Numbered from the stretch's first letter, positions 7,011-34,304 are shown. The stretch is 64,000 nt of DNA from Bdellovibrionales bacterium (GCA_965219095.1 CBDCMT010000001.1:800001-864000), one strand, 5' to 3'. Numbers and translations are program-made. Notes: generated by a model from the letters alone, not told the origin.

Positions 7011-7017
7011 GATTACT

Positions 7018-7044
7018 TGCTCGGTTAAAAGTAGACTAAAGTTA
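7018..7044 (-). promoter_or_regulatory. Candidate sigma-28 (FliA)-like promoter
   Basis: TAAC-N15-ACCGAGCA versus consensus TAAA-N15-GCCGATAA; shares the CTATTAA context with the site at 30643. Confidence 0.35.
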
Positions 7045-7083
7045 ATAGGACTTTTGTCTTTTTTTTAACTTTGTTAGAGGTAG

Positions 7084-7131
7084 AAACATCCTCCTCAGTA
7101 GGAGTTAAGGGCTGTTAAGAAACCGACTTAC
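7084..7131 (-). repeat. Orphan end of the GTAAGTCGG.. IS66-like MITE family
   Basis: Reverse complement GTAAGTCGGTTTCTTAACAGCCCTTAACTCCTAC; related copies at 9498, 11573, 26140, 26397, 30488, 34563. Confidence 0.7.
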
Positions 7132-7270
7132 AATGTTTCATAGTATTTGTTGTAAAGAACTTTTTTCTTGCTTGACTGCCTGGTCATCCATATGAGTATA
7201 AAAGTCAAAACTTGGGTTAATAAAGGGGAAACGTACCAATCACATAATGCGTTTACCAAAGAGGAATGAT

Positions 7271-8611
7271 TTAATATCTATAATTTTCAGATTTAAAAGG
7301 ACCCTTTTTAGGAATTTCCAAATACTCTGATTGTTTAGGAGTGAGTTCTGTGAGCTTGACTCCTAGTTGATCTAAATGAAGGTGAGCAACTTTTTCATCT
7401 AAGTGCTTAGGAAGACAATAAACCTTTCCTTTTTGGTAAAAATTTGTTTGTTGTTGATGATGTTTCCATAACTCCATTTGGGCTAAAACTTGGTTGGTAA
7501 AGGAGTTACTCATAACAAAGGAAGGATGTCCTGTGGCACAACCTAAATTTACAAGGCGACCTTTTGCTAAAACAAGTATTTCTTTTTTGTTAGCTAAGGT
7601 GTGGATATCTACTTGTGGTTTTATTTCTCGAACTTGAGAGTTTTTATTTAACCACTCCATATCGATTTCTACATCAAAATGGCCAATGTTGCACACAATG
7701 GCTCCTGACTTCATAGCTTCAAACTCTGATTTTGTGATTACATCACAACAGCCCGTAGCTGTTACAAAAATATTGGCTTCTTTGCAAGCTTCTTTCATGG
7801 TTGTGACTTCGTAACCTTCCATACTGGCTTGAAGAGCACAGATAGGATCAATTTCTGTTATTAAACCACGAGCTCCATAGGCTTTCATAGAATGAGCACA
7901 ACCTTTTCCCACATCTCCATAACCTGCAATAGCAACAACCTTTCCCGCAATCATCACATCTGTGGCACGTTTGATTCCATCGGCTAGGGATTCTTTGCAA
8001 CCATAGAGATTATCAAATTTTGATTTCGTTACAGAATCATTGACGTTGATGGCAGGAACTTTGAGAGCATTTTTTTTAGCTCTTTTATATAAATTATGAA
8101 CTCCTGTTGTGGTCTCTTCTGAAAGGCCTATGATTTTGTCTAATAGTTTTTTATAGTGCATTTCATGCATAAGGTTCGTCAGATCACCTCCATCATCTAA
8201 GATCAAATCAAAGCCCTCACTCCAACCCTCAATGGTTTGTTTTATGCACCAAAGGTATTCTTCCTCTGTTTCTCCTTTCCAAGCAAAAACAGGAACACCT
8301 CTTTCTGCCATAGCTACGGCCGCATGATCTTGAGTGGAATAAATGTTACAAGAACTCCACCTCGCTTCAGCTCCTAGTTCTATAAGTGTTTCGATAAGGA
8401 CAGCTGTTTGAATGGTCATATGAAGACAGCCTGTAATGCGAGCTCCTTTTAAGGGTTTTAGATTTCCATACTCTTTTCTTAAACTCATAAGCCCCGGCAT
8501 TTCTTGTTCTGCAATTTGGATTTCCTCTCTTCCCCAATGTGCCATCTTTTGAAATTTTTCTTCACTTTCCATAGCTTTTTGGCATACACGATAGTCTTTT
8601 TTGTTTTCCAT
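7271..8611 (-). CDS. ahcY: Adenosylhomocysteinase
   Basis: [55 protein letters not shown]. Confidence 0.97.
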
Positions 8612-8665
8612 AAATCTCCTAGAAACTTTATTTGCTATACCACTTTATCTTATTTTATAAGAAAA

Positions 8666-9430
8666 TCAATCACAAGCAGTAAGGATTTCATAACCTGTGT
8701 TTGTGATTAAAATGGTATGTTCAAACTGAGCTGAAAGGCTTTGATCCGAGGTCTCATATTCTTTGATAGTAGAATCTTGTATAGGAAGTTCTAAAATGGG
8801 TTCTTGAGTTTCATTGATCATAGGCTCTACAGTAATACAAGTCCAAGGGATGAGAGGATCTCCTTTGCCTTTCTTGCCAAAAGAGGGAATAAAAGGATCT
8901 TGGTGAAATTTTTTACCAATCCCATGTCCTCCAATTTCTAAAACAGGAAAAAAACCCTTTCTTTTAACGTATTTTGAGATGGCAAAACCAATGTCTCCTG
9001 TCCTACCATGGGGTTTTATAGCTTCAATCCCTTTCCTCATAGCCTCATAAGCACAATCTTTTATTTTTTGAGCCTCTAAAGACACCTCGCCCACAAAGAA
9101 AGTATAGGAGGTATCTCCATAAAAGCCATCTTTCACACAAGTGATGTCAATGTTAATAATATCTCCCTTTTTTAAGACCTGATTCTTTCTAGGAATTCCA
9201 TGACAGATGCAGTGATTGACTGATGTACAAATGGACTTCGGAAAACCTTTGTAGTTAAGAGGAGCGGGTACAGCATTTTGGCTTACAATGTACTCATAGG
9301 CCATTTTATCAAGCTCTTCTGTAGTTATATTCTCTCTCACATAGCGACCTATGTGCTTTAATGTTTTCGCTGCCAAATGGCAGGATTTTTTCATTAAATC
9401 AATTTCCTGTGGGTTAAGAGGTGTCGGCAT
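8666..9430 (-). CDS. map: Type I methionine aminopeptidase
   Basis: GFPKSICTSVN, CHGIP, GDIINIDIT, GHGIG, EPMIN, SAQFEHT. Confidence 0.96.
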   Translation of the reverse strand: MPTPLNPQEIDLMKKSCHLAAKTLKHIGRYVRENITTEELDKMAYEYIVSQNAVPAPLNYKGFPKSICTSVNHCICHGIPRKNQVLKKGDIINIDITCVKDGFYGDTSYTFFVGEVSLEAQKIKDCAYEAMRKGIEAIKPHGRTGDIGFAISKYVKRKGFFPVLEIGGHGIGKKFHQDPFIPSFGKKGKGDPLIPWTCITVEPMINETQEPILELPIQDSTIKEYETSDQSLSAQFEHTILITNTGYEILTACD

Positions 9431-9519: not shown

Positions 9520-10612
9520 CTATCTGAGCTTGAATTTCTTTTTCACCTTAGTCATTCTTAGATCTCTTTCAGCTCTGTTATTAGTAGGATCTACGTTCTT
9601 TCTTTTAGCAAAACACAGTATTTCTGCTTCATACTTTTTAAATCGCAGCCAAAGGTTTTGAGCTTGTGTATGCTTTATTCGTCCTTTCTTGCCATTTTTT
9701 TTAGGAAATTCTGGAAGCTCTTTTAAGCCTTTTGTAAGAATACTCCTATACCTTCTCTGAAGAGTTTCGTACTCTTTTTGAGTCAGAACTCTTGACTCTT
9801 TTTTATGAACTAGCTCCACAGTCTCTTTAAGAAGTTTTTTGAGATTTGTAGCCCATTTGAATCCATTGCTTTCTTCTATAAATTTAAGCTCTCTCAAAAG
9901 GTGAGCCACACACAAAGCATGAGTTATCTTATCATAACAAAAGTAAGGACTCCAACAATCATGCACAAGCACTCCTCCATATCTATCCAAGAGACCAATA
10001 TCTTTTATGGCTTCCCTTCCACCTGAAAGGTGGAGAAACTGCAAGACTAATTCTCCTGAACTATAAGTATGAATCCAGTAGTTTTTACCCTTAACCCTCA
10101 TAGAGGTCTCATCAACATGAATGACCTCTGATTCAAGTATCTTTTCTTTCATCTGCTCTTCCCAACTTTTAAGAAACTCTCCTAATTCAGCAATGTATCT
10201 CAACATAACTGCAGGAGAAATCATTCGACCTATAAGCCCCATGTAATGTTTGAACTTCCCCCAAAAAAGTGGACAGTTTTTTGGGGGAAGATCAGTTCCC
10301 CAACACGTTGAAAAGACAGCATCTGAACTATAATGAAATTGATGATGGAAGCTCTAATGCCTACACCATACTGAAGAGGACCACTCATACCTTTAGGAAA
10401 TTGACCTTTATTTCTAGCTCCACATGAGGGACAATTCTTAACCTCAGAAGTTACAGTATGGGTCTGAATTTCATAAAAAATATCAATCTTTTTACGCTTC
10501 TCAAGGCTTTTTACCTCTGCTGTCTTTAAAAACATCCCACACTGAGAACACTCTGAGGGAGAGACAGTCTCCTCACTGTTTGTATCTTTACTGTTATCAA
10601 GTCTAGAGCCCT
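9520..10612 (-). mobile_element. Truncated IS66 transposase copy interrupted by a 44-bp IS3-type hairpin
   Basis: Near-identical to about 2020-3050; both ends missing. Confidence 0.88.
10251..10294. mobile_element. 44-bp collapsed IS3-family remnant (IR hairpin)
   Basis: TGAACTTCCCCCAAAAAA-GTGGACAG-TTTTTTGGGGGAAGATCA with TG..CA ends and 3-bp TSD GTT; absent from the other IS66 copies. Confidence 0.85.
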
Positions 10613-17015: not shown

Positions 17016-18077
17016 TCATCTTAATCGAATCTCAAGACAAAGAGTTCCAATTTTTTCTATACTTCTATCAACTTTTTGTTCTTGATAAGGGGTGGAGTTT
17101 TGAGTTGAAAAAAGACAGTGTCCTTGGAAAGCTGGATAAGCTTGAGCAGAATAAGGGGGAAGATATTCCAAAGGTTTTTCACGAATACGTGCACGAGAAA
17201 CCCCTTCAAAGATATAAGCTGAGTGGGGAAAAACTTGGGGAAAAAATCGTGCTCTTTGAAACGCCTTAAAACTCATAGCAAAAGAAGCACAAATAGGGTT
17301 GTTTTTTCCTGTTTTCGGTAGAATTTCATCGAGAAAGGAAATTCCTGTCTTCTGGGAAGAGGATCTTAACAGTTGTTTAAAAAAATGATCCTTTCCGCAT
17401 AACCTGTACAGATAATAAAAGTATTGATAAAGTTGCCCATACTGAGATAAAGACTGACTTCTGTTATCTTCATTCCACTGATTTACAGGAAGAATTTCCT
17501 TTAAAGAGACTTCAGGATAGTCAAAAGCATGAAAAAAAGCTGTACTGAAAAATCCGGTAACTAAGTGTTCTGCAAGAAGAGCTACTCCTTCTTCCACCCA
17601 TAATTCTTCTTGAGAACGGGTGTAATCCTGAATCAAGTGGATTAATTCATGGGTTATCATCACTTGACGAGAAACTGAATCCGCTCCTAAAAATTCTTCT
17701 TTGTCCAAAAAAATCACCGGGTTACCTGAAGTATCTTTTATATGAGGCGAGTAAAAGCCTCCCGCATGGTTTGTTTCAATTTCAATAAGATAAAGACTCC
17801 ACCTCTTTTCTGAAATAAGAGGCTTTATATGAAGATTGTTCAAAACAGCTAAGAGATCTTCTGATAGAAGAAGCTTGATTTTTTTGATTTGAAAAGAAGG
17901 TAGGTTTTTAGAGGGATAGTAAATAAAGACTTCTTTGAAAGGAGTAGTGAGTTTTATAAAGTCACTATTGTTATGCTTAATGTCACTATGAGAAAACTTA
18001 ATGCAACACATAAAAATAGCAAGAAAAAGGGATAACCTATTAAAAAAACTTATATTTTTATTCTTTATTCTATTCAT
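17016..18077 (-). CDS. Secreted zinc metallopeptidase-like protein (gluzincin-type HExxH..E)
   Basis: Signal-like N-terminus, GGFY, THELIHLIQ followed by WVEEGVA; divergent from the TIGR02147 gene. Confidence 0.65.
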   Translation of the reverse strand: MNRIKNKNISFFNRLSLFLAIFMCCIKFSHSDIKHNNSDFIKLTTPFKEVFIYYPSKNLPSFQIKKIKLLLSEDLLAVLNNLHIKPLISEKRWSLYLIEIETNHAGGFYSPHIKDTSGNPVIFLDKEEFLGADSVSRQVMITHELIHLIQDYTRSQEELWVEEGVALLAEHLVTGFFSTAFFHAFDYPEVSLKEILPVNQWNEDNRSQSLSQYGQLYQYFYYLYRLCGKDHFFKQLLRSSSQKTGISFLDEILPKTGKNNPICASFAMSFKAFQRARFFPQVFPHSAYIFEGVSRARIREKPLEYLPPYSAQAYPAFQGHCLFSTQNSTPYQEQKVDRSIEKIGTLCLEIRLR

Positions 18078-18170
18078 AATCTCCTTTATAGCTTTAATTT
18101 CGTAACAAAAGTTACTGTTTTTTTTACAAAAAGTCAAGTTTTTATTGAAAAAATAGAAAGGTCATTTAAA

Positions 18171-19088
18171 GTGCTTAATATGGAGCACTTAGAATCATCT
18201 AAAAAAACAAAAGTTCAAGCCCTACCTAATGTCTTTTACTATAAAAATTATCGAGTTTATTTAAAGGACTGGGTTTTAGCTAAAAAAAAGTTTAATAAAA
18301 GTTATTCAGCAGCGATTTTTGCGAAAAAAGCAGGTTTAAATTCTCATAACCTTTTAGGCATGGTGATTCGAGACGAGCGGAATTTGAGTTGGAAGAGCAT
18401 CAATGGTTTTTGTAAATCCCTTAACCTAAAAGTTAGGGAAAAACTCTATTTTGAAAAGCTGGTTCTTTTCTGTCAAGCTAAAAACTCAGAAGATAAAGCT
18501 GATTTTTTCGAACAACTCCTCCAACTTTCAAAAGGGCATGAAAACAAACTTTTAGATAAAATAAAGGATTACAAGTCCTATTATAGGCATTGGTATATTG
18601 TGGCTATAAGAGAAATGGTCAATCTTGAAGATTTTCAAGAAGACCCAGGCTGGATAACCGAAAAACTTAAACACAAGATCACAAAAAAGCAGGCCACAGA
18701 GGCTTGGAAAACCTTAAAACGTATTGGAATGGTCCGTTTTAACAAAGAAAGAAGGGTTTATGAAGTAGTCAATGCTGTTATTGATTATCAAAATGAGGGA
18801 GTGGATTTTGTTCTCCGTAACTTTCACAAAGAGTATTTGCACTTAACTTTAGATACTGTTGACGGAGACATTGAAGAGAGGGAGCTTTCAAGTCTCACCA
18901 TCGCTGTCACAGACGAAGACTTAAAAGAAATAAAAAAGAAAATCGATGAATACAGAAAGTATTTGAACTTAATTTATACAAAAACTAAAGAAGAAGGATC
19001 AAAACAAAAACCTCAAAATTTAATCGTTGTGAACATTCATCTTTTAGATCTGACTTCAAGAAAATCGAAAGGAGAAAAAAACAAATGA
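18171..19088 (+). CDS. TIGR02147/DUF4423-family putative HTH regulator
   Basis: YRVYLKD..YSAAIFAKKAGLNS HTH, WYIVAIREMV, NFHKEYL, ERELSSLT; ATG at 18180 is an alternative start. Confidence 0.85.
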   Translation: MLNMEHLESSKKTKVQALPNVFYYKNYRVYLKDWVLAKKKFNKSYSAAIFAKKAGLNSHNLLGMVIRDERNLSWKSINGFCKSLNLKVREKLYFEKLVLFCQAKNSEDKADFFEQLLQLSKGHENKLLDKIKDYKSYYRHWYIVAIREMVNLEDFQEDPGWITEKLKHKITKKQATEAWKTLKRIGMVRFNKERRVYEVVNAVIDYQNEGVDFVLRNFHKEYLHLTLDTVDGDIEERELSSLTIAVTDEDLKEIKKKIDEYRKYLNLIYTKTKEEGSKQKPQNLIVVNIHLLDLTSRKSKGEKNK

Positions 19089-20395
19089 AATATTTTATTT
19101 TATTAACCATTATTTTGTGTTTGAACACATTCGTTCTATTAGCAAATGAAGATCCTTACCGTGAGGGAGTAGAGGCTGTTGTTTTGAACCAAGTGGATAT
19201 AAATGAACTAAAAGCTTATGCTGAAAACACCAAATCTATTTTAGAAAGGGCTCTTTATGAAGCAAAAGAGAAGCCTTCTAATGAAGCTCTCCTAATTTAT
19301 GAGAAAGCAATTCATGAGGCTGTTTTTCAGTCTTTTGTAAAAAAGAAGCACTTTGAACTTCTTATGCGCTTTATCCTTAACCAAGCTCGTGATTTGGTCT
19401 CAGGAACTCCAGGAAAATCAGGAGAAGAATCAAGTTCGAGAAAAGAAGGTGTTTTAAAAAGGACTTCTAAAAAGGATTTATCTCTTGTTATTTATGAAGA
19501 ATCCTTTCGACTAGCTCTTAACTTTTATTCTGATGATAAGGAAACTCTTTCTAGCATGGAAGAAACTCTTTTTTCAAACTCAGACTCAGACTCAGTTATA
19601 ACTCTTATTCCCTACAATAAGATGGCCTTTGAAAGGTTGCGTATTTCTCAACAGTGGGTTGGTGGTGTTTTTGAAGAAGACCTTAAATTTGAATTTTTAA
19701 TGAGAATTTTAGAACACTGGCTTTTAACTGTGTCTCAAAAAACAAATTTGCAAAAAACAAAGATGGGTGCTTTGATTCTTTATGTTCAAGATGTTCTGGG
19801 GCGTGTGAAACTTCAATCTTCAACAGGTGCTAAAGTTCGGTTACTAAAAGGTGCAGTAAGGTGGGTTTTAAAACAATCCTTTTTTCAGGATTTTGTTACA
19901 CCTAACAACAACTATTATTATACAAAACCACAGCTTGGTTGTTGGAAAGAGTGGTTTATAGAAGGAGTGATTGATTATTCTAATGGAAGATTAAGATTGC
20001 AATGCTATAAAAAAAGTTACCTGAAAACACAGAATTCTTATTTTACAGAACCAAAATTTGGTTGTTGGAAGAGATTTGTAAAAGGGACGACTAGTACTTA
20101 TGGTTTGCAATGCTATAAAAAAAGTTACCTGAAAACACAGGATTCTTATTTTACAGACCCAAAATTTGGTTGTTGGAAGAGATTTGTAAAAGGGACGACT
20201 TTTCCAGATATTTCCTCAAAAGGTAAAAATATCTTGCAATGCTATAAAAAAAGTTACCTGAAAACACAGGATTATTATTTTACAGAACCAAAATTTGGTT
20301 GTTGGAAGGGATTTGTAGGAAGTATGGCTTTTGAATATCTTATAGGTTTTGAACAATTTTTATGCGAGAAAAAAGATAGAAGGAGAAAAAAATGA
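19085..20395 (+). CDS. Secreted protein with a constant N-domain and 4 Cys-loop tandem repeats (paralogue 1)
   Basis: Signal peptide; repeat YxTxPxxGCWKxF-[variable]-xCxKK. Confidence 0.85.
   Translation: MKYFILLTIILCLNTFVLLANEDPYREGVEAVVLNQVDINELKAYAENTKSILERALYEAKEKPSNEALLIYEKAIHEAVFQSFVKKKHFELLMRFILNQARDLVSGTPGKSGEESSSRKEGVLKRTSKKDLSLVIYEESFRLALNFYSDDKETLSSMEETLFSNSDSDSVITLIPYNKMAFERLRISQQWVGGVFEEDLKFEFLMRILEHWLLTVSQKTNLQKTKMGALILYVQDVLGRVKLQSSTGAKVRLLKGAVRWVLKQSFFQDFVTPNNNYYYTKPQLGCWKEWFIEGVIDYSNGRLRLQCYKKSYLKTQNSYFTEPKFGCWKRFVKGTTSTYGLQCYKKSYLKTQDSYFTDPKFGCWKRFVKGTTFPDISSKGKNILQCYKKSYLKTQDYYFTEPKFGCWKGFVGSMAFEYLIGFEQFLCEKKDRRRKK
19906..20395 (+). repeat. Coding tandem repeat, 4 units of about 108-130 bp
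   Basis: Constant TTGCAATGCTATAAAAAAAGTTACCTGAAAACACAG..GGTTGTTGGAA segments alternate with variable loops. Confidence 0.9.
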
Positions 20396-20454
20396 CATAG
20401 AGATAATAGGGAAAGAAAAAAATATAAACAAACAGAACAAAGAAGGAGAAAAAA

Positions 20455-21348
20455 ATGAAAACAAAACTATTTTTAACCATTTTAACAGGAGGACTGTTCA
20501 TCTTCACAGGACAGAGTTCATTTACAGCTATAGTAGAAACAAACAACGTTCAAGAGTTAGAACAGTTAGAAAGGAGAGTGGTAAACTCCAGTATTCCTAA
20601 CGGTTACTTCACAATGAAAATGGGAAGTGGGAGTGACAAAAAAACAGTAGAGATTCACATAAAGACTATCTATCAAAACAATAAGGAGTCTTTTACTTTT
20701 GCTTTATTGTTTTACCCCTTTGAAGACGGGGTAAAAAAGGCCAAGCTGTTTACAGTCAGTGCTTTAAGTGATGGAAATAGCCATTGGTTTTCTCTCTATC
20801 AAACAGAGAGCTACTACATGTCAGACGGTACAGAAATTTCCTATAGAGGACAATTTATAGGAGATAGAGGAAAGAGAACTTTGATTCTAATAGAAAGTAA
20901 TGAAACATGTGAGACTTTCAATTCTTCCCAAATGGAGTTTAAAGAAAGCTCAAAAAGAAAAAAATGGAATCCTATTCCTCTTCATTTCACAGATAAAAGC
21001 TCTCAAATGGCTTTAAATGGCTCTGTTTTTAATGGTGAAATTTTTGGAAAGGCAGGTACCTGGTCAGTTGAGAGAATCGGATCTTCTTATGTGGGAATTC
21101 TACGCAGACAAAGAGATTCTCAATACACAGCTTCAGGCTATGATTCAGAAAGAAGAATTCATGCTCTTATGGTTTCTATCAACAAAGATCTTTTCTTCCT
21201 CAATGAATCTCCTCGAAATTCTTTATCCTGCTTAGTAGAAGTGTCTTCCACTCAAAAAAAGAAAAGAAAAGAAAAGAAAAGAAAAGAAAAAGAAAAGAAA
21301 AGAAAAGAAAAAGAAAAAAGTAACTCGACCCTCATACGGTGGTCCTAG
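20455..21348 (+). CDS. Secreted hypothetical protein with a (GAAAA)n-encoded basic C-terminus
   Basis: Signal peptide MKTKLFLTILTGG; RBS AAGGAG. Confidence 0.75.
   Translation: MKTKLFLTILTGGLFIFTGQSSFTAIVETNNVQELEQLERRVVNSSIPNGYFTMKMGSGSDKKTVEIHIKTIYQNNKESFTFALLFYPFEDGVKKAKLFTVSALSDGNSHWFSLYQTESYYMSDGTEISYRGQFIGDRGKRTLILIESNETCETFNSSQMEFKESSKRKKWNPIPLHFTDKSSQMALNGSVFNGEIFGKAGTWSVERIGSSYVGILRRQRDSQYTASGYDSERRIHALMVSINKDLFFLNESPRNSLSCLVEVSSTQKKKRKEKKRKEKEKKRKEKEKSNSTLIRWS
21254..21320 (+). repeat. Imperfect (GAAAA)n microsatellite
   Basis: About 67 nt of pure purine, GA4-6 units. Confidence 0.9.
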
Positions 21349-21403
21349 ATTTTAAGGGGAAAAATATGAAAAAAATAAACAAAATAAATAAAGGAGGGAA
21401 AAA

Positions 21404-22747
21404 ATGAAAACAATCATTACAAACAAGGGAGAAAAAATGAAAACAATCATTCAAAACGCTTTTATTATTGTGACAGTCTTTTTTACAATGACGTCTACGG
21501 CGAATTCTTTAATAGGAACAGGAGCTGGTAATGGCGGGAATGGTCCAAGGCAAAGTGACAATACAACTACAGTAGCTCAACTACAACCTGAAGAGACTCA
21601 AAACAACCAACAAGATAACAAGGCAGTAGATTATGAGGTTTACAGTGATTTAGGTCCTCTCTACTACTGGGGAAACAATTCTATACACGAGCTTCGATCT
21701 GCTTTACACTCAGCTCGCCTTCAAATCATAAAAGGCTTCTACAATAAGGCTGGACAAGTCCTTATTGACGCTTTGTCAAACACATCAAAGTCTTTTCCCA
21801 AAAAAACCGTTGATCACGGAAGTCCTTTAACTAAAAAACTTATTGATCGAGGAATTCTTTATGCTCGCAATATTAAAACAGCTTTTCAAGAGGGAGGTTT
21901 TACAAAAACAGAAATTCACACAGAAACTTATTTTCTTGAGGGCTATGTTCAAATGATCATCAACGCTTGGGAAGAGATCGATCAAGACTACTACATTCCT
22001 TACTACCACAGCTACGAGAGACGATGTTCTCCCCACTATTACTGTGAAGACTTTAGTTATATCGATTTTCACAGAAAGTACATTGAATATGTAATCAAAG
22101 AAATAGAATTCGTTCTCAACAACTTCACCGAAGAATCCCATATAGTTTATAGAGGTCCAATGATTCTTCCTATAGGGGATGTTCGTGCTGTTCTTTTAAT
22201 CTCTGAAATTATGTCCATAAAAGTGTCTAAAGATATTTTGGAAACTCTTTGGCCCTATAAATATGGTTATATTGCTTTTAGATTGCAGGAGCTTCACAAA
22301 AACTTGAAAGATTTTAATAGAAAAAATAATCGTTTAGTTTACCCTGATGCTGTAGCAGCTTTAAACAGCTCTCGAGGAATCCATTCTACTTTTCTATTTG
22401 CTGTAGAAGAATTAGAAAAAGAAGGAGGCCATTACAGTAGAAAAGTTCATAATCCGGTTCTAGCAAGAAATATTTTTCTTTCTTCTAACAATCCAGAATA
22501 CACCATTCATCTTAATTACTCCATACGAATCAATTGTCTTGTTGTGACAGGAGAAGCTTATCGTAGTGACGGACGTGTAAAAGTTCTGGTTAATGGACAG
22601 ATCAAAGGAGATCTTTATCTTCCAAGACGGGATCCCCAGTATGTTGTAAACGTTGATAGTCGAGCTAACTCCATTAGATTTGTTATGGAACAAGGAACCA
22701 ATGTAAGAATTCAATCAGTTAAGATAAGAGAAGACTGCTATCGCTAG
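21404..22747 (+). CDS. Secreted GNGG-motif protein with a probable C-terminal beta-sandwich domain
   Basis: Signal peptide then GTGAGNGGNG; beta-rich tail VKVLVNGQIKGDLYLPRRDPQYVVNV; start duplicated (21404 and 21437). Confidence 0.75.
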   Translation: MKTIITNKGEKMKTIIQNAFIIVTVFFTMTSTANSLIGTGAGNGGNGPRQSDNTTTVAQLQPEETQNNQQDNKAVDYEVYSDLGPLYYWGNNSIHELRSALHSARLQIIKGFYNKAGQVLIDALSNTSKSFPKKTVDHGSPLTKKLIDRGILYARNIKTAFQEGGFTKTEIHTETYFLEGYVQMIINAWEEIDQDYYIPYYHSYERRCSPHYYCEDFSYIDFHRKYIEYVIKEIEFVLNNFTEESHIVYRGPMILPIGDVRAVLLISEIMSIKVSKDILETLWPYKYGYIAFRLQELHKNLKDFNRKNNRLVYPDAVAALNSSRGIHSTFLFAVEELEKEGGHYSRKVHNPVLARNIFLSSNNPEYTIHLNYSIRINCLVVTGEAYRSDGRVKVLVNGQIKGDLYLPRRDPQYVVNVDSRANSIRFVMEQGTNVRIQSVKIREDCYR

Positions 22748-24149
22748 CGGAAAGGAAAAAAATATGAAACTCATTATTACATTTTATTTTTTAATTTTTA
22801 TTCAAAGTTCTTTAACAACTAAAGCTTTTTCAGAAGATCCTTACCGTGAGGGAGTAGAGGCTGTTGTTTTGAACCAAGTGGATATAAATGAACTAAAAGC
22901 TTATGCTGAAAACACCAAATCTATTTTAGAAAGGGCTCTTTATGAAGCAAAAGAGAAGCCTTCTAATGAAGCTCTCCTAATTTATGAGAAAGCAATTCAT
23001 GAGGCTGTTTTTCAGTCTTTTGTAAAAAAGAAGCACTTTGAACTTCTTATGCGCTTTATCCTTAACCAAGCTCGTGATTTGGTCTCAGGAACTCCAGGAA
23101 AATCAGGAGAAGAATCAAGTTCGAGAAAAGAAGGTGTTTTAAAAAGGACTTCTAAAAAGGATTTATCTCTTGTTATTTATGAAGAATCCTTTCGACTAGC
23201 TCTTAACTTTTATTCTGATGATAAGGAAACTCTTTCTAGCATGGAAGAAACTCTTTTTTCAAACTCAGACTCAGACTCAGTTATAACTCTTATTCCCTAC
23301 AATAAGATGGCCTTTGAAAGGTTGCGTATTTCTCAACAGTGGGTTGGTGGTGTTTTTGAAGAAGACCTTAAATTTGAATTTTTAATGAGAATTTTAGAAC
23401 ACTGGCTTTTAACTGTGTCTCAAAAAACAAATTTGCAAAAAACAAAGATGGGTGCTTTGATTCTTTATGTTCAAGATGTTCTGGGGCGTGTGAAACTTCA
23501 ATCTTCAACAGGTGCTAAAGTTCGGTTACTAAAAGGTGCAGTAAGGTGGGTTTTAAAACAATCCTTTTTTCAGGATTTTGTTACACCTAACAACAACTAT
23601 TATTATACAAAACCACAGCTTGGTTGTTGGAAAGAGTGGTTTATAGAAGTGATTGGTTATTCTAATGGAAGATTAAGATTGCAATGCTATAAAAAAAGTT
23701 ACCTGAAAACACAGGATTCTTATCTTACAAAACCACAGCTTGGTTGTTGGAAAGAGTGGTTTATAGAAGGAGTGATTAGTTATTCTAATGGAAGATTAAG
23801 ATTGCAATGCTATAATAAAAAAAGTTACCTGAAAACACAGGATTCTTATTTTACAGACCCAAAATTTGGTTGTTGGAAGGGATTTGTAAAAAGGAGGACT
23901 ACTAATTATGGTTTGCAATGCTATAAAAAAAGTTACCTGAAAACAAAGGATTATTATTATACAGACCCAAAATTTGGTTGTTGGAAGGGATTTGTAAAAG
24001 GGAGGACTGGTACTTATGGTTTGAAATGCTATAAAAAAAGTTACCTGAAAACAAAGGGTTCTTATTTTACAGAACCAAAATTTGGTTGTTGGAAGAGATT
24101 TGTAAAAGGGAGGTATGGTATTTTTGGTTTGCCATGCTATAAAAAAAGT

Positions 24150-25657
24150 GGCTCCTCCCGGGAATCTGTGGGTGAAAAGTAGTAGAAATCCTCCAAAAAG
24201 GCTCATATTAATCAAAGTAAGAGTAAGACATCCTATCTTGTATTTTTGAGTTCTTTGAGGCCTTTACTGGCCTCTATCACCTCCGGTGATTGAACTCAAA
24301 AACATTCTTTTATTTGCTGTATTACATTAAAATTTTAAAAAAGAAGCACCTACTTCCCAGATGCCTTAAAATGTTATTCAAAAAAAAAAAAAGGAGGGAA
24401 GAGATGCTTTTGAAGACTATACTAAATGATTGTTTAAGATGGAAGTCTTTTGTATACGGAGACATTTATTTTTCAAAAGATAGAAAGTCAATTAATGTTC
24501 CTATTAAGGCTCGTAAAAATGGCCAAGCTTTTTGTAGTGTTTGTAAGAAGCCCTGTTCAGTGTATGACAGCAGTAAATCATCACGGGACTTTGAATCCCT
24601 TCCTATTTTAAGTTACAGGGTGTTTTTTGTTTATTTTGTAAGAAGAGTTAATTGTCCTTGCTGTGGGGTAAAAGTTGAGTATTTACCTTGGGCCGATGGT
24701 AAGAAGAGTTTAACGATCTTTTACATGAAGTATTTAGCAGACTGGTGTCGTCACCTGTCTTGGAAAGAGGTTTCTTGTAAGTTTCATGTCAGTTGGAATC
24801 AGGTCTATGCTTCGGTAGAATGGGTCGTAGAATATGGTTTAAAACAAAGGGTTTTAAAGGGAATACAAGCTATAGGTGTAGATGAAATACAATGGAAAAA
24901 GAACCATCAGTATCTCACCTTAGTCTATGAAATAAGCAAAACCCGTGTACGCTTGTTGTGGATAGGAGAGAAAAGAACAGAAAAGAGTTTTAGAAAATTC
25001 TTTGATTTACTAGGAGAGAAGTCAAAAGATATACGGTTTGTGTGTTCTGATATGTGGAAGCCTTATTTAAAAGTCATAAAGGAGAGGGCAAGTGGAGCTT
25101 TACACATATTAGATCGGTTTCATATCGTAGCAAGACTCAATAAGGCTTTAGATGAAGTGAGAGCTTCAGAACACAAAAAAATGAAAGAAGACGGGTATGA
25201 ACCCCTTTTAACAAAAGCTAGATGGCCCTTGTTAAAAAATGCAGAAAATTTAAAATCTTATGAAAAAGTAAAATTAAGGCATTTAATACAGTACAATTTA
25301 AAAAGTATCCGCTGTTATTTTTTAAAAGAAGACTTCCGACAGTTATGGACCTATGTTCCACCAACTTGGGCTGGTAAATTTATAGACAGTTGGACGAGAC
25401 GAGTCATGCTTTCAAAAATTGAACCTATGAAAAGAAAAGCAAAAACCATACGAAGACATAAGCTACTTATTCTTAATTACTTCAAGGCTAAAAAAACCTT
25501 CTCCTCAGGGATTGTAGAGGGTTTAAACAACAAAGTAAAACTCACTATGAGAAAATCTTACGGCTTTAGAACCTCTAAAGCTATAAAAATCGCCTTATAT
25601 CATAACCTTGGAAAACTGCCAGAACCTCCGGGAACCCACAGATTCTTTTGAGGAGGC
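24150..25657 (+). mobile_element. ISL3-family element, apparently intact
   Basis: Ends GGCTCCTCCCGGGAATCTGTGGG / GCCTCCTCAAAAGAATCTGTGGG; 8-bp TSD AAAAAAGT. Confidence 0.93.
24404..25651 (+). CDS. ISL3-family transposase
   Basis: CSVC/CPCC zinc finger, IGVDE, CSDMWKPY, LDRFHIV, VEGLNNKVK..SYGFR. Confidence 0.92.
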   Translation: MLLKTILNDCLRWKSFVYGDIYFSKDRKSINVPIKARKNGQAFCSVCKKPCSVYDSSKSSRDFESLPILSYRVFFVYFVRRVNCPCCGVKVEYLPWADGKKSLTIFYMKYLADWCRHLSWKEVSCKFHVSWNQVYASVEWVVEYGLKQRVLKGIQAIGVDEIQWKKNHQYLTLVYEISKTRVRLLWIGEKRTEKSFRKFFDLLGEKSKDIRFVCSDMWKPYLKVIKERASGALHILDRFHIVARLNKALDEVRASEHKKMKEDGYEPLLTKARWPLLKNAENLKSYEKVKLRHLIQYNLKSIRCYFLKEDFRQLWTYVPPTWAGKFIDSWTRRVMLSKIEPMKRKAKTIRRHKLLILNYFKAKKTFSSGIVEGLNNKVKLTMRKSYGFRTSKAIKIALYHNLGKLPEPPGTHRFF

Positions 25658-25861
25658 AAAAAAGTTACCTGAAAACACAGGATTCTTATTTTACAGACCC
25701 AAAATTTGGTTGTTGGAAGGGATTTGTAGGAAGTATGAGTTATTATTTTGGACAACTTTTATGCGAGAAAAAAGATAGAAGGAGAAAAAAATGACATAGA
25801 GATAATAGGGAAAGAAAAAAATATAAACAAACAGAACAAAGAAGGACCTTTTAGGGTTGTA

Positions 25862-27541
25862 ATACCAATTACAGAAATTAATTCGACATTTTTATGTTCA
25901 AATTTAAAATTTTAAAATTGACTTAAGGAAAAGTTTCAGTTAGGAGGTTTTAAAAAAACTTCTTTTAAGGTGAGTTTAAGTTTTCATAAGATATGTTTAT
26001 TTCATGTATATCTATTGTTGTGTGAATCGATTGATGGGTTAAAATAAGTGTAAAAAAGTGAGGTTAAAATTTAAAATGAAAAAAATCAGTTACACAATTT
26101 AATTTATAGGTTCAAATTAATTTACAAGCTTGATTCATCGTAAGTCGGTTTTTTAACAGCCCTTGACTCCTATAAGAAGATGTTTCTTAGATTTTAAAGG
26201 AGAAGTTTTTATTGATCTTGTTGTAAAACAAGCTTGAACAAGCCTGTAAGACGTTTTCCTAAGATCTTCCCCGTTACAAAAGTATTAGAGATAGAATAAT
26301 TCTTAGTTTTTTTTTCGTATTGTGATTTTCTTTGTGCTTTATTTTTTAAGAACCCCCCTCCTTATAGGAGTCAAGGGCTGTCAGACAACCGAGTTACGAT
26401 TCATCTTGTTGTTTTGTCCAAGATCGAGTGCATAATTTTTTAATCCTGCCCTCCTGATCGCAAAAAGTATTCCAGGCCTCACAACAAGTATTCAGTATAT
26501 GGTCATAGTTTTTAAAACATGCATTCGATAATTTGATCCTTCGTAATTGTTGCCAGACTTGTTCCATGGGATTTAATTCTGGACTATAAGGAGGTAAAGG
26601 CATCAGGGATAAATTCTTAGGAACTATCAAAGTCTCTGTGGTATGCCAACTGGCTCTGTCCATTAAAACAATTCCATGATAGTTTTCTTGAATATTTTTA
26701 GATATCTCATCTAAGTGAATTTGCATCATCCCTGAATTACATTCCGGTAAGATCCAAGCACAGCCTTTATCTCTATCCGGACAAACTGCTCCAAAAATAT
26801 AAGTGGATAAAAATTGTCTTTGCCTCACAACTCTAGGCCGTGTGCCTTTTCTTGCCCAAATCCTGCTCAAAGAACCTTGCTGAGCTTATTCTGCATTCAT
26901 CCTGCCACCAAATCTCTATTTTATGAGTCTGAATCTTTTCTTTTATTTTCTCCACCTCTTCTGGAAAATGTTCCTTAAACTGTTCCATAGCTTCTTAATG
27001 AACTTTTAGGATGAAGAGAACGACCACTGATCCATACAATATTAAGACGGTCTAAAGAAACATAAACCCCAGAAAGAGAATAGCAACAGTCAAATTCATC
27101 TGCTAAAAGTTTCTGTATTTCCTTTGCTCCTATGCTTCCTCCCTCTCTTTTGTCTTGAATTTCATCTAACTTGATTTTGAAGTTCTCTTCTTCTGTCACT
27201 GGCAAACGAGGCTTGCGTCCTCTGCCTTCTCGATCTATCAATCCCTCGTAATCAAAGTCTACAAAAAAAGACTGTAACCAGGATTTGATACTGTGACGGT
27301 GATACAAAACCATACCTGCTGTTTCTTGAATCGATTTTCCTTCTTGCATATGCTGCAAAGCCAATAATTTTGTCTTGATGTTGGCACTTCTTTCTACTTT
27401 GTAAGTAGCTAGAAAATTATACCCTTGAATCTGTGTAACTAAATCTTTTTTCGACATGACTCTAAAAATTTAACAGAGTTTGATCAAAAAGCCAGGACGC
27501 AATGCGTTAAAAAATGTCGAATTAATTTTTGGAAATGGTAT
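25862..27541 (-). mobile_element. IS630-family element with frameshifted transposase (26975-27457 and 26394-about 26940)
   Basis: IRs ATACCAATTACAGAAATTAATTCGACATTTTT / ATACCATTTCCAAAAATTAATTCGACATTTTT with TA flanks; MDRASWH, LPPYSPELNPME. Confidence 0.85.
26140..26397. mobile_element. 258-bp non-autonomous MITE with IS66-like ends
   Basis: IRs GTAAGTCGGTT..ACAGCCCTTGACTCCTATAAG / GTAACTCGGTT..ACAGCCCTTGACTCCTATAAG; 8-bp TSD GATTCATC. Confidence 0.88.
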
Positions 27542-27679
27542 TACGCATGGCTTCGAACCGCTAAAGTCAGGGGAAAAAATTTGTGTTTCAAAGCATTAAA
27601 ACACTTTTTTTGTTGCATTGGATTGGATAGTGCAGTTAGAGTTAGGAGGCAAAATAATAAACAAAAAGAGGAGGAAAAT

Positions 27680-29058: not shown

Positions 29059-30290
29059 TAGCTGAGATTTCTGTGATTGTTGAATCTCTCTTTAAGGTTG
29101 TGAACATTCTGATTGTTGTGTTTTTAGAAAAACAGGTTCGAAAAAATTCCAGCAACAGCGGTCTTCCTCCTTCGCAAGATTTTAGTCGTCAAGGGAATCG
29201 TAATAAGAAAGCTAGTGGGAGTCAGAAAAAGGGTTCTAGACTTGATAACAGTAAAGATACAAAACAGCGAGGAGACTGTCTTTCCCTCAGAGTGTTCTCA
29301 GTGTGGGATGTTTTTAAAGACAGCAGAGGTAAAAAGCCTTGAGAAGCGTAAAAAGATTGATATTTTTTATGAAATTCAGACCCATACTGTAACTTCTGAA
29401 GTTAAGGATTGTCCCTCATGTGGAGCTAGAAATAAAGGTCAATTCCCTAAAGGTATGAGTGGTCCTCTTCAGTATGGTATAGGCATTAGAGCTTCCATCA
29501 TCAATTTCATTATAGTTCAGATGCTGTCTTTTCAACGTGTTGGGGAACATTACATGGGGCTTATAGGTCGAATGATTTCTCCTGCAGTTATGTTGAGATA
29601 CATTGCTGAATTAGGAGAGTTTCTTAAAAGTTGGGAAGAGCAGATGAAAGAAAAGATACTTGAATCAGAGGTCATTCATGTTGATGAGACCTCTATGAGG
29701 GTTAAGGGTAAAAACTACTGGATTCATACTTATAGTTCAGGAGAATTAGTCTTGCAGTTTCTCCACCTTTCAGGTGGAAGGGAAGCCATAAAAGATATTG
29801 GTCTCTTGGATAGATATGGAGGAGTGCTTGTGCATGATTGTTGGAGTCCTTACTTTTGTTATGATAAGATAACTCATGCTTTGTGTGTGGCTCACCTTTT
29901 GAGAGAGCTTAAATTTATAGAAGAAAGCAATGGATTCAAATGGGCTACAAATCTCAAAAAACTTCTTAAAGAGACTGTGGAGCTAGTTCATAAAAAAGAG
30001 TCAAGAGTTCTGACTCAAAAAGAGTACGAAACTCTTCAGAGAAGGTATAGGAGTATTCTTACAAAAGGCTTAAAAGAGCTTCCAGAATTTCCTAAGAAAA
30101 ATGGCAAGAAAGGACGAATAAAGCATACACAAGCTCAAAACCTTTGGCTGCGATTTAAAAAGTATGAAGCAGAAATACTATGCTTTGCTAAAAGAAAGAA
30201 CGTAGATCCTACTAATAACAGAACTGAAAGAGATCTAAGAATGACTAAAGTGAAAAAGAAAGTGTCAGGGTGTTTCAGAACAGAAGAAAT
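29059..30290 (+). mobile_element. Truncated IS66 transposase copy
   Basis: Near-identical to about 1855-3080; 3' end replaced by an ISL3 mini-remnant. Confidence 0.88.
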
Positions 30291-30328
30291 GGCTCCTCCC
30301 GGGAACCCACAGATTCTTTTGAGGAGGC
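30291..30328 (+). mobile_element. 38-bp collapsed ISL3 (left end fused to right end)
   Basis: GGCTCCTC-CCGGGAA-CCCACAGATTCTTTTGAGGAGGC; the junction lies in CCGGGAA, present in both ends of the full element. Confidence 0.8.
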
Positions 30329-30642
30329 AAAAAATATTGACCTATGAATTTTCAAAGTCTTATACAGACATTTAAAAAATACCAGTCATAAGATTTTAAA
30401 CGCTTTGGGAAGATGTTAGGAAATAAAATGAGAAAAAGAAGAAAAGTTTCCTCAGTAGAAGTCAAGGGCTGTTAAGAAACCGACTTACGATTCAAGAGTA
30501 TGATTTTCTGGCTACTTACAATTGGATCTTATTTTTGAGTCCACTTTTTCAGCACAGTCCACAGTATAATATTTTTTCATAAAGAAAGTGGCTCATTTTA
30601 AAACACTTTAAAAAATTGTAATAAAAAACACTTTTTCGCTAT

Positions 30643-31912: not shown

Positions 31913-34304
31913 GCCTCCTCAAAAGAATCTGTGGGTTCCCGGAGGTTCTGGCAGTTTTCCAAGGTTATGATATAAGGCGATTTTTATAGCTTTAGAGGTT
32001 CTAAAGCCGTAAGATTTTCTCATAGTGAGTTTTACTTTGTTGTTTAAACCCTCTACAATCCCTGAGGAGAAGGCTTTTTTAGCCTTGAAGTAATTAAGAA
32101 TAAGTAGCTTATGTCTTCGTATGGTTTTTGCTTCTCTTTTCATAGGTTCAATTTTTGAAAGCATGACTCGTTTCGTCCAACTGTCTATAAATTTACCAGC
32201 CCAAGTTGGTGAAACATAGGTCCATAACTGTCGGAAGTCTTCTTTTAAAAAATAACAGCGGATACTTTTTAAATTGTACTGTATTAAATGCCTTAATTTT
32301 ACTTTTTCATAAGATTTTAAATTTTCTGCATTTTTTAACAAGGGCCATCTAGCTTTTGTTAAAAGGGGTTCATACCCATCTTCTTTCATTTTTTTGTGTT
32401 CTGAAGCTCTCACTTCGTCTAAAGCCTTATTGAGTCTTGCTACGATATGAAACCGATCTAATATATTCAAAGCTTGACTTGCCCTTTCCTTTATTACTTT
32501 TAAATAGGGCTTCCACATATCAGAACACACAAACTGTATATCTTTTGACTTCTCTCCTAGGGCGTGTCCTCATTTGCCCAGACCTTTTTCAAGACCTTAG
32601 CCGTGTTGAATATTTATAAAGATTGTAAAAAGCTCATAACAAAGGGAGGTGTTATGTTAAGAAAAGTTTTAACAGATTCTATGTGGAAGGATCTGGAAGC
32701 TATTAGTAAGAGAGAAAGGCTGTTATCATTCAGCAAACAATAGAAATGTTATGGAAGCAATTTTATGGAAATTACGCACAGGCAGTCCGTGGCGTGATAT
32801 TCCTGAACAGTTCTGTCCTTGGAAGAGAGCATATAATCGCTTTAATAGGTGGGCACAAAAAGGGTTATGGAATGATTTTTTTTTACTTTACAAGAAGAAG
32901 TTGATACAGAGTGGGTGTCCATCGACGGAAGTTACGTATCGGTTCATCAGCATGCTAGTGGAGCTCGGCGTGGAGAAAGTCGTGCTGTAGGAAAATCTAG
33001 AGGTGGATCCACAACAAAAATACACATGGCCTCCGATGCGCATGGAAATCCACTCTGTTTTAAAATCACTGGGGGTGAAGTACACGACAGTCAAGTTGCA
33101 GGTGATTTAATTGATGAGTTTCGTAGTGAGTATTTGATTGCTGACAAGGCCTATGACTCGGATGAGATACGAGATAAGGCTCGTAGTAAGAAGATAAAGC
33201 CTGTGATACCGAGACGAAAAAATAGCAAAAAGAAAAATAAAGATTTTGATCGTCATATCTATAAATCTCGACATCAGATAGAAAACCTTTTTGCTCGTCT
33301 TAAGCATTTTAGAGGTATTGCCACTCGATTTGAAAAGCTTGCTAGAAATTTCAAAGCTATGCTATCTATAGCATGTATGTTTATTTGGCTTAAACTTCAA
33401 AGTAAAGGTCCAGTCAAATGAGGACACGCCCTAGTAAATCAAAGAATTTTCTAAAACTCTTTTCTGTTCTTTTTTCTCCTATCCATAGCAAACGAACACT
33501 TTCTTTGCTTATTTCATAGACTAAGGTGAGATACTGATGGTTCTTTTTCCATTGTATTTCATCTACACCTATAGCTTGTATTCCCTTTAAAACCCTTTGT
33601 TTTAAACCATATTCTACGACCCATTCTACCGAAGCATAGACCTGATTCCAACTGACATGAAACTTACAAGAAACCTCTTTCCAAGACAGGTGACGACACC
33701 AGTCAGCTAAGTACTTCATGTAAAAAATTGTTAGGTTTTTCTTCCCATCTGCCCAAGGTAAATACTCAACTTTTACTCCACAGCAAGAACAATTAACTCT
33801 TCTTACAAAATAAACAAAAAACACCCTGTAACTTAAAATAGGAAGGGATTCAAAGTCCCGTGATGATTTACTGCTGTCATACACTGAACAGGGCTTCTTA
33901 CAAACACTACAAAAATCTTGGCCATTTTTACGAGCCTTAATAGGAACATTAATTGACTTTCTATCTTTTGAAAAATAAATGTCTCCGTATACAAAAGACT
34001 TCCATCTTAAACAATCATTTAGTATAGTCTTCAAAAGCATCTCTTCCCTCCTTTTTTTTTTTTGAATAACATTTTAAGGCATCTGGGAAGTAGGTGCTTC
34101 TTTTTTAAAATTTTAATGTAACACAGCAAATAAAAGCAAATAAAATGAATGTTTTTGAGTTCAATCACCGGAGATGATAGAGGCCAGTAAGGGCCTCAAA
34201 GAACTCAAAAATACAAGATAGAATGTCTTACTCTTACTTTGATTAATATGAGCTCTTTTGGGGGATTTCTACTACTTTTCACCCACAGATTCCCGGGAGG
34301 AGCC
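31913..34304 (-). mobile_element. ISL3 copy interrupted by IS5; no TSD
   Basis: Both ISL3 ends present; transposase split into 33414-34040 and 31919-32530. Confidence 0.9.
32561..33430 (+). mobile_element. IS5-family (IS427-like) element with split transposase
   Basis: IR GGCGTGTCCTCATTTG at both ends; CTAG duplicated; ILWKLRTGSPWRDIP, IDGS, ADKAYDSD, RHQIENLFARLK; T-run at the orfA/orfB junction plus an extra 5' frameshift. Confidence 0.92.

Follow-up and report, generated by a model that had tools for sequence, protein, structure and literature searches.

A tandem pair of secreted proteins with an identical N-terminal domain and variable two-cysteine repeat units in a Bdellovibrionales bacterium: a probable product of recombination and diversifying selection

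The stretch of DNA analysed here (the window) comprises 64,000 nt of the genome of a Bdellovibrionales bacterium (G000:C2:800001-864000) and includes two plus-strand genes, A and B, that lie 3.7 kb apart with two further genes for secreted proteins, C and D, between them. Both encode secreted proteins in which a constant N-terminal domain (N-domain) is followed by an array of two-cysteine repeat units with loops that all differ. It is reasonably probable that recombination homogenises the constant parts of the pair, and that diversifying selection on a binding surface keeps the tips of the predicted hairpins different. As judged by sequence comparison, A and B belong to a family without a name that is spread through the phylum and combines a constant N-domain with exchangeable putative C-terminal binding modules. 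The initial annotation of this DNA had proposed a constant-plus-variable receptor or adhesin, diversified either by a remote diversity-generating retroelement (DGR) together with repeat recombination or by strong diversifying selection. The receptor architecture and the combination of selection with recombination fit the data below, but the DGR route does not, as no reverse transcriptase (RT), Avd protein or template was found in this genome, which is 3.11 Mb long in two contigs with 34% G+C and is 94% complete as judged by marker genes.

The features of the two genes are as follows.

19085..20395, plus strand: gene A, 436 aa, with a signal peptide, a predicted helical N-domain (approximately residues 22-270) and four two-cysteine units (open reading frame (ORF), family search and AF2 structure prediction)
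19148..19964, plus strand: identical 817-bp block, gene A copy, beginning at the first codons for the mature protein and reaching into unit 1 (exact match extension)
19916..20392, plus strand: repeat array of gene A, with one type I unit (A1), two type II units (A2 and A3, the loop of A3 being replaced and longer) and one terminal unit (A4)
22764..24149, plus strand: 5' part of gene B, with a signal peptide unlike that of A, an N-domain shared with A, units B1-B4 and the larger part of B5
22833..23649, plus strand: identical 817-bp block, gene B copy (exact match extension)
24150..25657, plus strand: ISL3-family insertion sequence (IS) inside unit B5 (PF01610, 1.7e-68)
25666..25794, plus strand: displaced 3' part of gene B, with the end of B5, unit B6 (terminal type) and the stop codon (translation and codon rows)
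25795..25846, plus strand: 52 non-coding bases after the stop codon of B, the same as 20396-20447 after the stop codon of A (0 differences in 52 nt; repeat family D6)

Exact match extension showed that positions 19148-19964 and 22833-23649 are the same base for base over 817 bp, as had been judged by eye when the block was first described. Immediately upstream of the block the two genes are unrelated, and this includes their signal peptides; A and B are therefore old paralogues. The boundaries between divergent and identical DNA are sharp. Beyond the arrays, the likeness of the two copies stops ~13 bp short of an IS630-family element.

The initial annotation gave gene B six repeats but missed that the gene is split. 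It is cut by a 1508-bp element, flanked by the 8-bp target duplication AAAAAAGT at 24142-24149 and 25658-25665, and its sixth unit lies behind the insertion. The element belongs to the ISL3 family by its transposase, its imperfect inverted ends, the target duplication and its further copies, with 63 near-full copies and 168 hits across the 3.1-Mb genome, and its target is an A-rich stretch of the repeat scaffold. The genome is undergoing an expansion of IS elements. In its present form, the reading frame of gene B continues for 11 codons into the IS (ORF 22764-24182), and the truncated product may or may not still be working.

The repeat units, four in A and six in B, fall into three types, all on the plus strand.

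19916-20038, plus strand: unit A1 (type I)
20039-20146, plus strand: unit A2 (type II)
20147-20275, plus strand: unit A3 (type II, loop replaced and longer)
20276-20395, plus strand: unit A4 (terminal type)
23601-23720, plus strand: unit B1 (type I)
23721-23846, plus strand: unit B2 (type I)
23847-23954, plus strand: unit B3 (type II)
23955-24062, plus strand: unit B4 (type II)
24063-24149 plus 25666-25686, plus strand: unit B5 (type II), split by the ISL3 element
25687-25794, plus strand: unit B6 (terminal type), behind the ISL3 element

The unit coordinates and the stretches from cysteine to cysteine, which are all different (n = 10), bear out the first description of the arrays. Alignments of units of the same type, from which the replaced loop of A3 (11 codons vs 4) and the 4 extra codons of A4 were omitted because they could not be aligned and in which B5 was read across the insertion by coordinates, contain 26 codon-state changes, corresponding to 30 nucleotide changes. 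None of the 30 is synonymous; 12 affect the first codon position, 15 the second and 3 the third. The initial annotation had seen no synonymous change among units of the same type; between types, a single silent difference does exist (Lys codon 11, AAA in type I and AAG elsewhere). In a neutral simulation on the real units, 20-28% of random substitutions were synonymous, and the probability of 0/30 was 1e-3 to 6e-5. The closest pairs of units differ at 20/336 aligned nt, as compared with 0/817 in the block (Fisher P = 1.3e-11), and all four length differences among units are multiples of three. In the type II loops alone, 11 changes on 20.4 nonsynonymous sites are set against 0 on 6.6 synonymous sites (P = 0.03), and the third positions of loop codons are all kept, as compared with 0.54 changes per site at positions 1-2. 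A clear relationship persists among loops of the same type, which are one or two nucleotide steps per codon apart. In the scaffold, the states E/D, R/G and Q/K occur in recombinant combinations among the units.

The positions of these changes can be placed on a predicted structure. The AF2 model of the gene A protein (75-sequence alignment) has a pLDDT of 86 and contains a helical bundle at residues 36-270, and each unit is modelled as a short strand, a beta hairpin and a one-turn helix. Modelled alone, the array reaches a pLDDT of 92.5 and a pTM of 0.84. In unit A2, the variable codons 16-21 correspond to residues 334-339, at the end of the predicted strand 331-337 and in the turn, codon 24 corresponds to residue 342 in the return strand, and cysteines 327 and 343 flank the modelled hairpin; a single disulfide would thus pin each unit. 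A sequence-profile search of the PDB with the repeats gave 0 matches at E <= 1, and Foldseek gave 0 at E <= 1e-3 against the PDB with either model. In a wide structure comparison with the PDB, the best match of the N-domain was a designed helical repeat with a Z of 11.1, within the generic range of helical bundles, and that of the array had a Z of 3.3. The repeat unit has a confidently predicted fold for which the PDB offers no solved counterpart.

Homogenisation confined to the N-domain is seen elsewhere in the same genome. The tandem pair P0009/P0008 (C2:86880-90252), in a second copy of the gene cluster described below, is identical over 789 bp, from -6 to +783, a tract that coincides exactly with the signal peptide and the N-domain and has 0 differences in 254 codons. 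The C-terminal part of this pair, a diverged cysteine domain of the CxW type, has a dS of 0.19 and a dN of 0.16 (dN/dS about 0.85), and the pair also has an EAEERRLRKIQ coiled-coil repeat that varies in length. As the tract is limited to the N-domain, gene conversion of this domain recurs in the genome. Among pairs in other genomes, the N-parts in G027 are 96.8% and 92.3% identical, as compared with 88.5% for the whole genes, and in G500 only the N-part is alike (826 bp, 95.3%); G510 and G372 showed no such contrast of the N-part (86.8% over the whole gene and 73% over 678 bp, respectively).

By analogy with the sister pair, gene conversion best explains the identity of the block, of the scaffold codons and of the 3' flank, whereas unequal crossover among units is the best explanation for the differing unit numbers and the recombinant states of the scaffold. 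The surviving differences are amino-acid-changing, in frame and concentrated at the predicted tips, and for this reason are read as the result of diversifying selection. Under such a scheme, gene conversion between the tandem copies, together with unequal crossover among units, would keep the N-domain and the repeat scaffold uniform and alter the number of units. The N-domain may be the constant anchoring or export part. With variable residues in the distal strand and the turn, the array would offer its variable tips, set in a row, for the binding of a ligand. The selecting agent is probably a target that itself changes, for example the surface of a prey or host cell, and of the differences at the tips only those that change an amino acid would be retained.

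Several points weigh against this explanation. It is drawn from two genes and ten units of one strain. The power of the zero-synonymous argument inside the loops alone is modest (P = 0.03), the scaffold alone gives P = 0.28 for the absence of synonymous changes, and most of the statistical power of the test comes from scaffold codons, which are open to wiping by recombination; if the loops are old and the scaffold was wiped clean by conversion, most of the zero-synonymous signal says little on positive selection. Transversions dominate among the type II changes, as a DGR would also produce, and adenine is among the states at 24 of the 30 variable columns as compared with an expected proportion of 0.58-0.61, a weak excess (nominal P = 0.01-0.02). 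The disulfide and the exposure of the tips come from the structural model. A genome so rich in IS points to a small population, where selection works less effectively. In addition, the Logan contigs of sequencing runs X1, X2, X3 and X5 are short and of low depth, switch between the A-like and the B-like path at the repeats and carry no weight either way.

The first alternative dispenses with positive selection. In this case the loops would be old and weakly constrained, patchy conversion, both among units and between the genes, would have erased all other differences, and the lack of synonymous changes would partly be due to chance. The weak results of the loop-only and scaffold-only tests are consistent with this, as are the unrelated signal peptides, which make A and B old paralogues, and the sister pair, in which the tract is limited to the N-domain and the sequence behind it has a dN/dS of about 0.85. 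However, old loops of this kind should not have kept their third positions at the rate of change observed at positions 1-2, nor should loops of the same type be so few steps apart, as they are not saturated, and every length change is in frame. We consider this account unlikely, though not negligibly so.

A second alternative is an RT-independent hypermutation targeted to the units, with selection then removing frame-breaking and silent outcomes. This would account for the sharp boundaries between identical and divergent DNA, for the prevalence of transversions in type II units and for the lack of neutral divergence around the arrays (0/817 nt, 0/52 non-coding nt and identical scaffold codons) beside 30 substitutions and 4 length changes inside them. 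Yet Pfam and NCBIfam scans of the window revealed no mechanism or gene for such a process, and the C-terminus of the sister pair P0009/P0008 shows ordinary old divergence. As mutation alone does not avoid synonymous sites, selection would be needed in any case. Targeted hypermutation is therefore decidedly doubtful.

A DGR was one of the two routes that the initial annotation offered for the pattern of changes, and one member of the family is indeed associated with such an element. In the relative G528 (C62:1-12000, locus L051), a canonical DGR lies beside a family member in a cluster that is syntenic with the window, with the gene order minus-strand 388-aa gene, DUF4423 gene, D-like gene, 267-aa gene, 509-aa target, HRDC gene, bAvd gene, RT gene and template repeat (TR). 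The DGR is made up of the following.

5096-6625: target gene
6491-6620: variable repeat (VR)
6863-7357: HRDC gene
7367-7714: bAvd gene
7711-8724: RT gene
8733-8862: TR

The 509-aa target consists of the N-domain (hhalign 98.5%, E 1.6e-15, 187 columns) and an FGE-sulfatase domain. Between the 130-nt TR and the last 130 nt of the target, 14 of 15 mismatches are at a template A, and 14 of the 31 template adenines are changed. Identity between the window and G528 is 33% for the DUF4423 protein, 28-33% for D-like proteins and 27%, a weak match, for a protein with an HExxH motif. Four further loci with a DGR, L052-L055 (G361:C7, G549:C7, G350:C4 and G478:C2), show the same order, in which an FGE target of 475-499 aa is followed by HRDC-like, Avd-like and RT genes; the HRDC-like gene thus seems to belong regularly to the DGRs of the phylum. 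The N-terminal half of the targets of L052-L055 is different. When the DGR-adjacent FGE proteins of G361, G549, G350 and G478 were considered as family members, the N-domain was found to be absent (hhalign probability <1%). Among the matches listed for 401 genomes of the phylum, no further N-domain gene adjoins an RT gene. As the other four targets are without the N-domain, the link between the N-domain family and DGRs rests on one genome, G528.

For A and B themselves, loops diversified by a DGR at a remote site, or by one no longer present, for instance after an IS-mediated deletion downstream of gene B, would be in line with the excess of adenine, with changes at codon positions 1-2 (a template A would give NNT variants), with the DGR in the syntenic cluster of G528, and with the IS elements, which are exactly where such a cassette would sit. 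However, PF00078 (RVT_1) had 0 matches at E <= 0.01 in both contigs (two candidates were scored and failed); in a survey of the phylum, 140 of the 401 genomes were positive, and the genome studied here again gave 0. There were also 0 matches to bAvd (PF22296; seven candidates scored), nothing in tblastn searches with the G528 proteins HRDC, Avd and RT, and no match to FGE-sulfatase (PF03781) anywhere in the genome. The non-coding, A-rich copy beside an RT gene that a DGR would entail was not found either: blastn of both genes against the 3.11-Mb genome detected copies of the unit only in A, B and the displaced tail of B, and blastn-short of four loops found no donor, only chance 12-15-mers.

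Nor does any unit behave as a template rich in mutable adenines. With each type II unit taken as the would-be template, A occurs at 1-8 of 7-12 mismatches, and the best has A at 9 of 16 variable columns, as compared with 14 of 15 mismatches for the TR of G528. Adenine is absent from all units at 6 of the 30 variable columns. Across the four type II units, 14 variable columns contain A, but 33 adenine columns are invariant, making adenine mutagenesis of the whole unit unlikely given that 14 of 31 template adenines are changed in a single VR in G528. The adenine excess noted above is real but weak. Codons with A at position 2 all encode hydrophilic, typically exposed residues, and an excess is therefore expected in exposed loops irrespective of the mechanism. 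The variable part of A and B, an array of hairpin units without a Pfam match, is not predicted to adopt a C-type-lectin/FGE-sulfatase or Ig-like fold, and both this and its loop-length changes are unlike known DGR targets. A further point against a DGR is that the N-domain is missing from the four other DGR-linked FGE proteins of the phylum. Hence, A and B are not DGR variable proteins as judged by the RT, template repeat, adenine confinement, Avd and fold, and a remote or lost DGR is very improbable. The proposal of a DGR thus holds for one member of the family and not for this pair.

That the pair or its differences are an artefact of assembling or polishing one repeat-rich gene is scarcely credible: 108-bp repeats and an 817-bp duplicate are hard to assemble and public contigs from the same study do cross over between the A-like and B-like paths, but the copies have different flanks and an IS in one of them, the differences are codon-structured, in frame and all amino-acid-changing, unlike errors, and contigs of X2 and X3 cover the A-specific start (19047-20026), the junction of A4 and gene C (20288-21245) and the B-specific start (22375-22922) with 0 differences each. 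Nine runs from five studies, with no RNA run among them, contain part of the window. Neither population variants nor an uninterrupted gene B were seen in the Logan contigs of X1, X2, X3 and X5. At 19973-19974, 20327-20342 and 23647, contigs of X1 and X2 combine A flanks with loop states of the B type, or B flanks with those of the A type (S for D in unit 1, a short loop like that of B6 before gene C, and the GGA codon of B1); these mixed states are either graph cross-overs at repeats longer than the assembler word or real recombinant alleles.

The family to which A and B are assigned was delineated by the N-domain. A and B have no match in Pfam or NCBIfam, and PHROGs gave one borderline row (E 0.00099). 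The N-domain is a helical region of ~260 aa after the signal peptide with conserved blocks such as ELKAYAEN, ELLMRFILNQA and EHWLLTVSQ. A word-indexed search with it found 9 proteins, and phmmer against 1.84 billion proteins found 101 cluster representatives at E <= 1e-3, 81 of them at <= 1e-10, nearly all matching residues ~2-265; the ESM Atlas had no usable match. The C-termini of 65 of the 101 representatives, mostly the longer ones, were scanned with Pfam, with the following result.

FGE-sulfatase: 10/65
Lcl_C, below cut-off (weak): 2/65
beta-propellers (WD40/PQQ-like, RCC1): 4/65
ricin-B: 1/65
PAN: 1/65
no Pfam domain: 47/65, including the two-cysteine repeats and a second, CxW-type repeat

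The family profile matched 82 of the 401 genomes of the phylum, many by the FGE part only. Its N-domain part matched at least 33, including the genome studied here, and ~20 of these have two or more adjacent copies. In a search of 301 genomes of the order with P0011, the two-cysteine repeat was found in this genome only, and four other genomes matched the other, CxW-type repeat region of P0011. No related loci were found by family alignment in genome and metagenome contigs. Literature searches returned only a proteome table for DUF4423/TIGR02147, nothing for diversity-generating retroelements with Bdellovibrionota, and nothing on the family under Bdellovibrio with DGR.

The genes that surround A and B are part of a conserved cluster.

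17016..18137, minus strand: secreted protein with an HExxH motif (373 aa), first gene of the conserved cluster (ORF; HELIH in the translation)
18171..19088, plus strand: TIGR02147/DUF4423 family gene (Pfam PF14394, 2.3e-28; NCBIfam TIGR02147, 2e-58)
20455..21348, plus strand: gene C, secreted, 297 aa, with a Lys/Glu/Arg-rich tail, cluster member (ORF)
21404..22747, plus strand: gene D, secreted, 447 aa, cluster member (paralogues in both other cluster copies, 37% and 35%)
25860..27543 (ends approximate, placed where many genome copies start and stop), minus strand: IS630-family element with a split transposase and many genome copies, the right bound of the duplicated segment (NCBIfam NF033545 on both ORFs)

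There are three copies of the cluster in this genome, in the window, at C2:82.3-90.3 kb and at C2:29.3-34.6 kb. The set comprises the HExxH gene on the minus strand, the TIGR02147/DUF4423 gene and a D-like gene, along with either one N-domain gene or two; a C-like gene is present in some cases. TIGR02147/DUF4423 and D-like neighbours are present in all three copies and in G528, and relatives of gene D adjoin N-domain genes in G001 and G027. In the window, the stop codon of the TIGR02147/DUF4423 gene overlaps the start of gene A, and its paralogues head both other cluster copies. The HExxH gene heads two of the three copies, a paralogue adjoining the second (C2:82336-83331), and is weakly kept in G528. 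Its product has no Pfam or NCBIfam match and, as judged by the motif, may be a candidate metalloprotease partner of the system. The third N-domain gene (C2:33750-34598) has a stop codon in the coiled-coil region followed by frame-broken sequence, and is probably a pseudogene. Gene C has no family match in Pfam, NCBIfam or PHROGs and a distant paralogue in the third cluster copy (23% over 247 aa). Its tail (21238-21345) is a long Lys/Glu/Arg low-complexity segment encoded by an AAAAG-rich tract, and KKDRRRKK also ends gene A and the tail of gene B. Pieces of IS630, IS66 and further ISL3 elements are located at 9520-10242, ~25860-27543, 29215-30375 and 31919-34040.

The architecture of A and B resembles several known systems in part. 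Textbook DGR variable proteins have a C-type-lectin/FGE-sulfatase fold. Like these, with the target in G528 as the verified case, A and B are secreted and have a constant body, a putative variable C-terminal binding surface and changes at codon positions 1-2, and with the G528 protein they share the N-domain and the DUF4423 and D-like neighbours. However, their genome is without RT, Avd and template, their variable part is a predicted hairpin array in which adenines are mostly invariant, and their loops vary in length. Antigenic variation by cassettes (pilE/pilS, vlsE) produces mosaic variable segments between conserved flanks, in which amino-acid-changing differences prevail. The pattern is alike in A and B, but their 3.11-Mb genome holds no archive of silent cassettes and no loop donors.

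In concerted evolution, as a general principle, gene conversion of tandem paralogues is combined with diversifying selection on exposed loops. A and B conform to this in the sharp-ended identical tracts of two pairs in their own genome and the near-identical N-parts in G027 and G500, with variable parts that escape, but neither the family nor its N-domain or repeat unit is represented in Pfam, NCBIfam or the PDB. Alpha-defensin-4 (1zmm) can be superposed on one unit over 31 residues at 1.4 A with a Z of 3.3, which is far below the threshold for relatedness and amounts to a loose resemblance of shape; alpha-defensins have three disulfides, whereas the unit has a single predicted one and stands in a tandem array within a large protein. 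As described in PMC10769870, the MAT fibres of Bdellovibrio bacteriovorus have an invariable N-terminal domain thought to be at the cell surface, swapped C-terminal tips of differing binding and many paralogues, and are long trimeric beta-prism fibres of up to ~1000 aa. The logic of a constant base and a variable tip is alike, as a functional analogy with no homology claimed, but proteins of the A/B family have 250-750 aa and a predicted helical-bundle N-domain.

The family defined here is absent from domain libraries and joins the N-domain to lectin-type, propeller, ricin, PAN or hairpin-repeat ends, usually in tandem copies beside a DUF4423 gene, in a phylum of largely predatory bacteria. 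By comparison across its members, the C-terminal end is swapped, mutated by a DGR or varied by repeats depending on the lineage, in agreement with selection on a variable binding surface in A and B. A bolder version, to which we attach little credence, is that one receptor family of predatory-type bacteria has its binding end diversified differently by lineage, by a DGR acting on a lectin fold in the relative and here by an RT-independent process targeted to the tips of disulfide-pinned hairpin units without a known fold and fast enough to leave no neutral change around them. The present case shows that a substitution pattern like that of a DGR can arise without one, and calls for caution where such assignments are made from sequence only. 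Three independent signs, namely a DGR on one member, the exchange of whole domains and the exclusively amino-acid-changing differences found here, speak for a variable C-terminal recognition surface, and the family is thus a concrete candidate for prey or host recognition.

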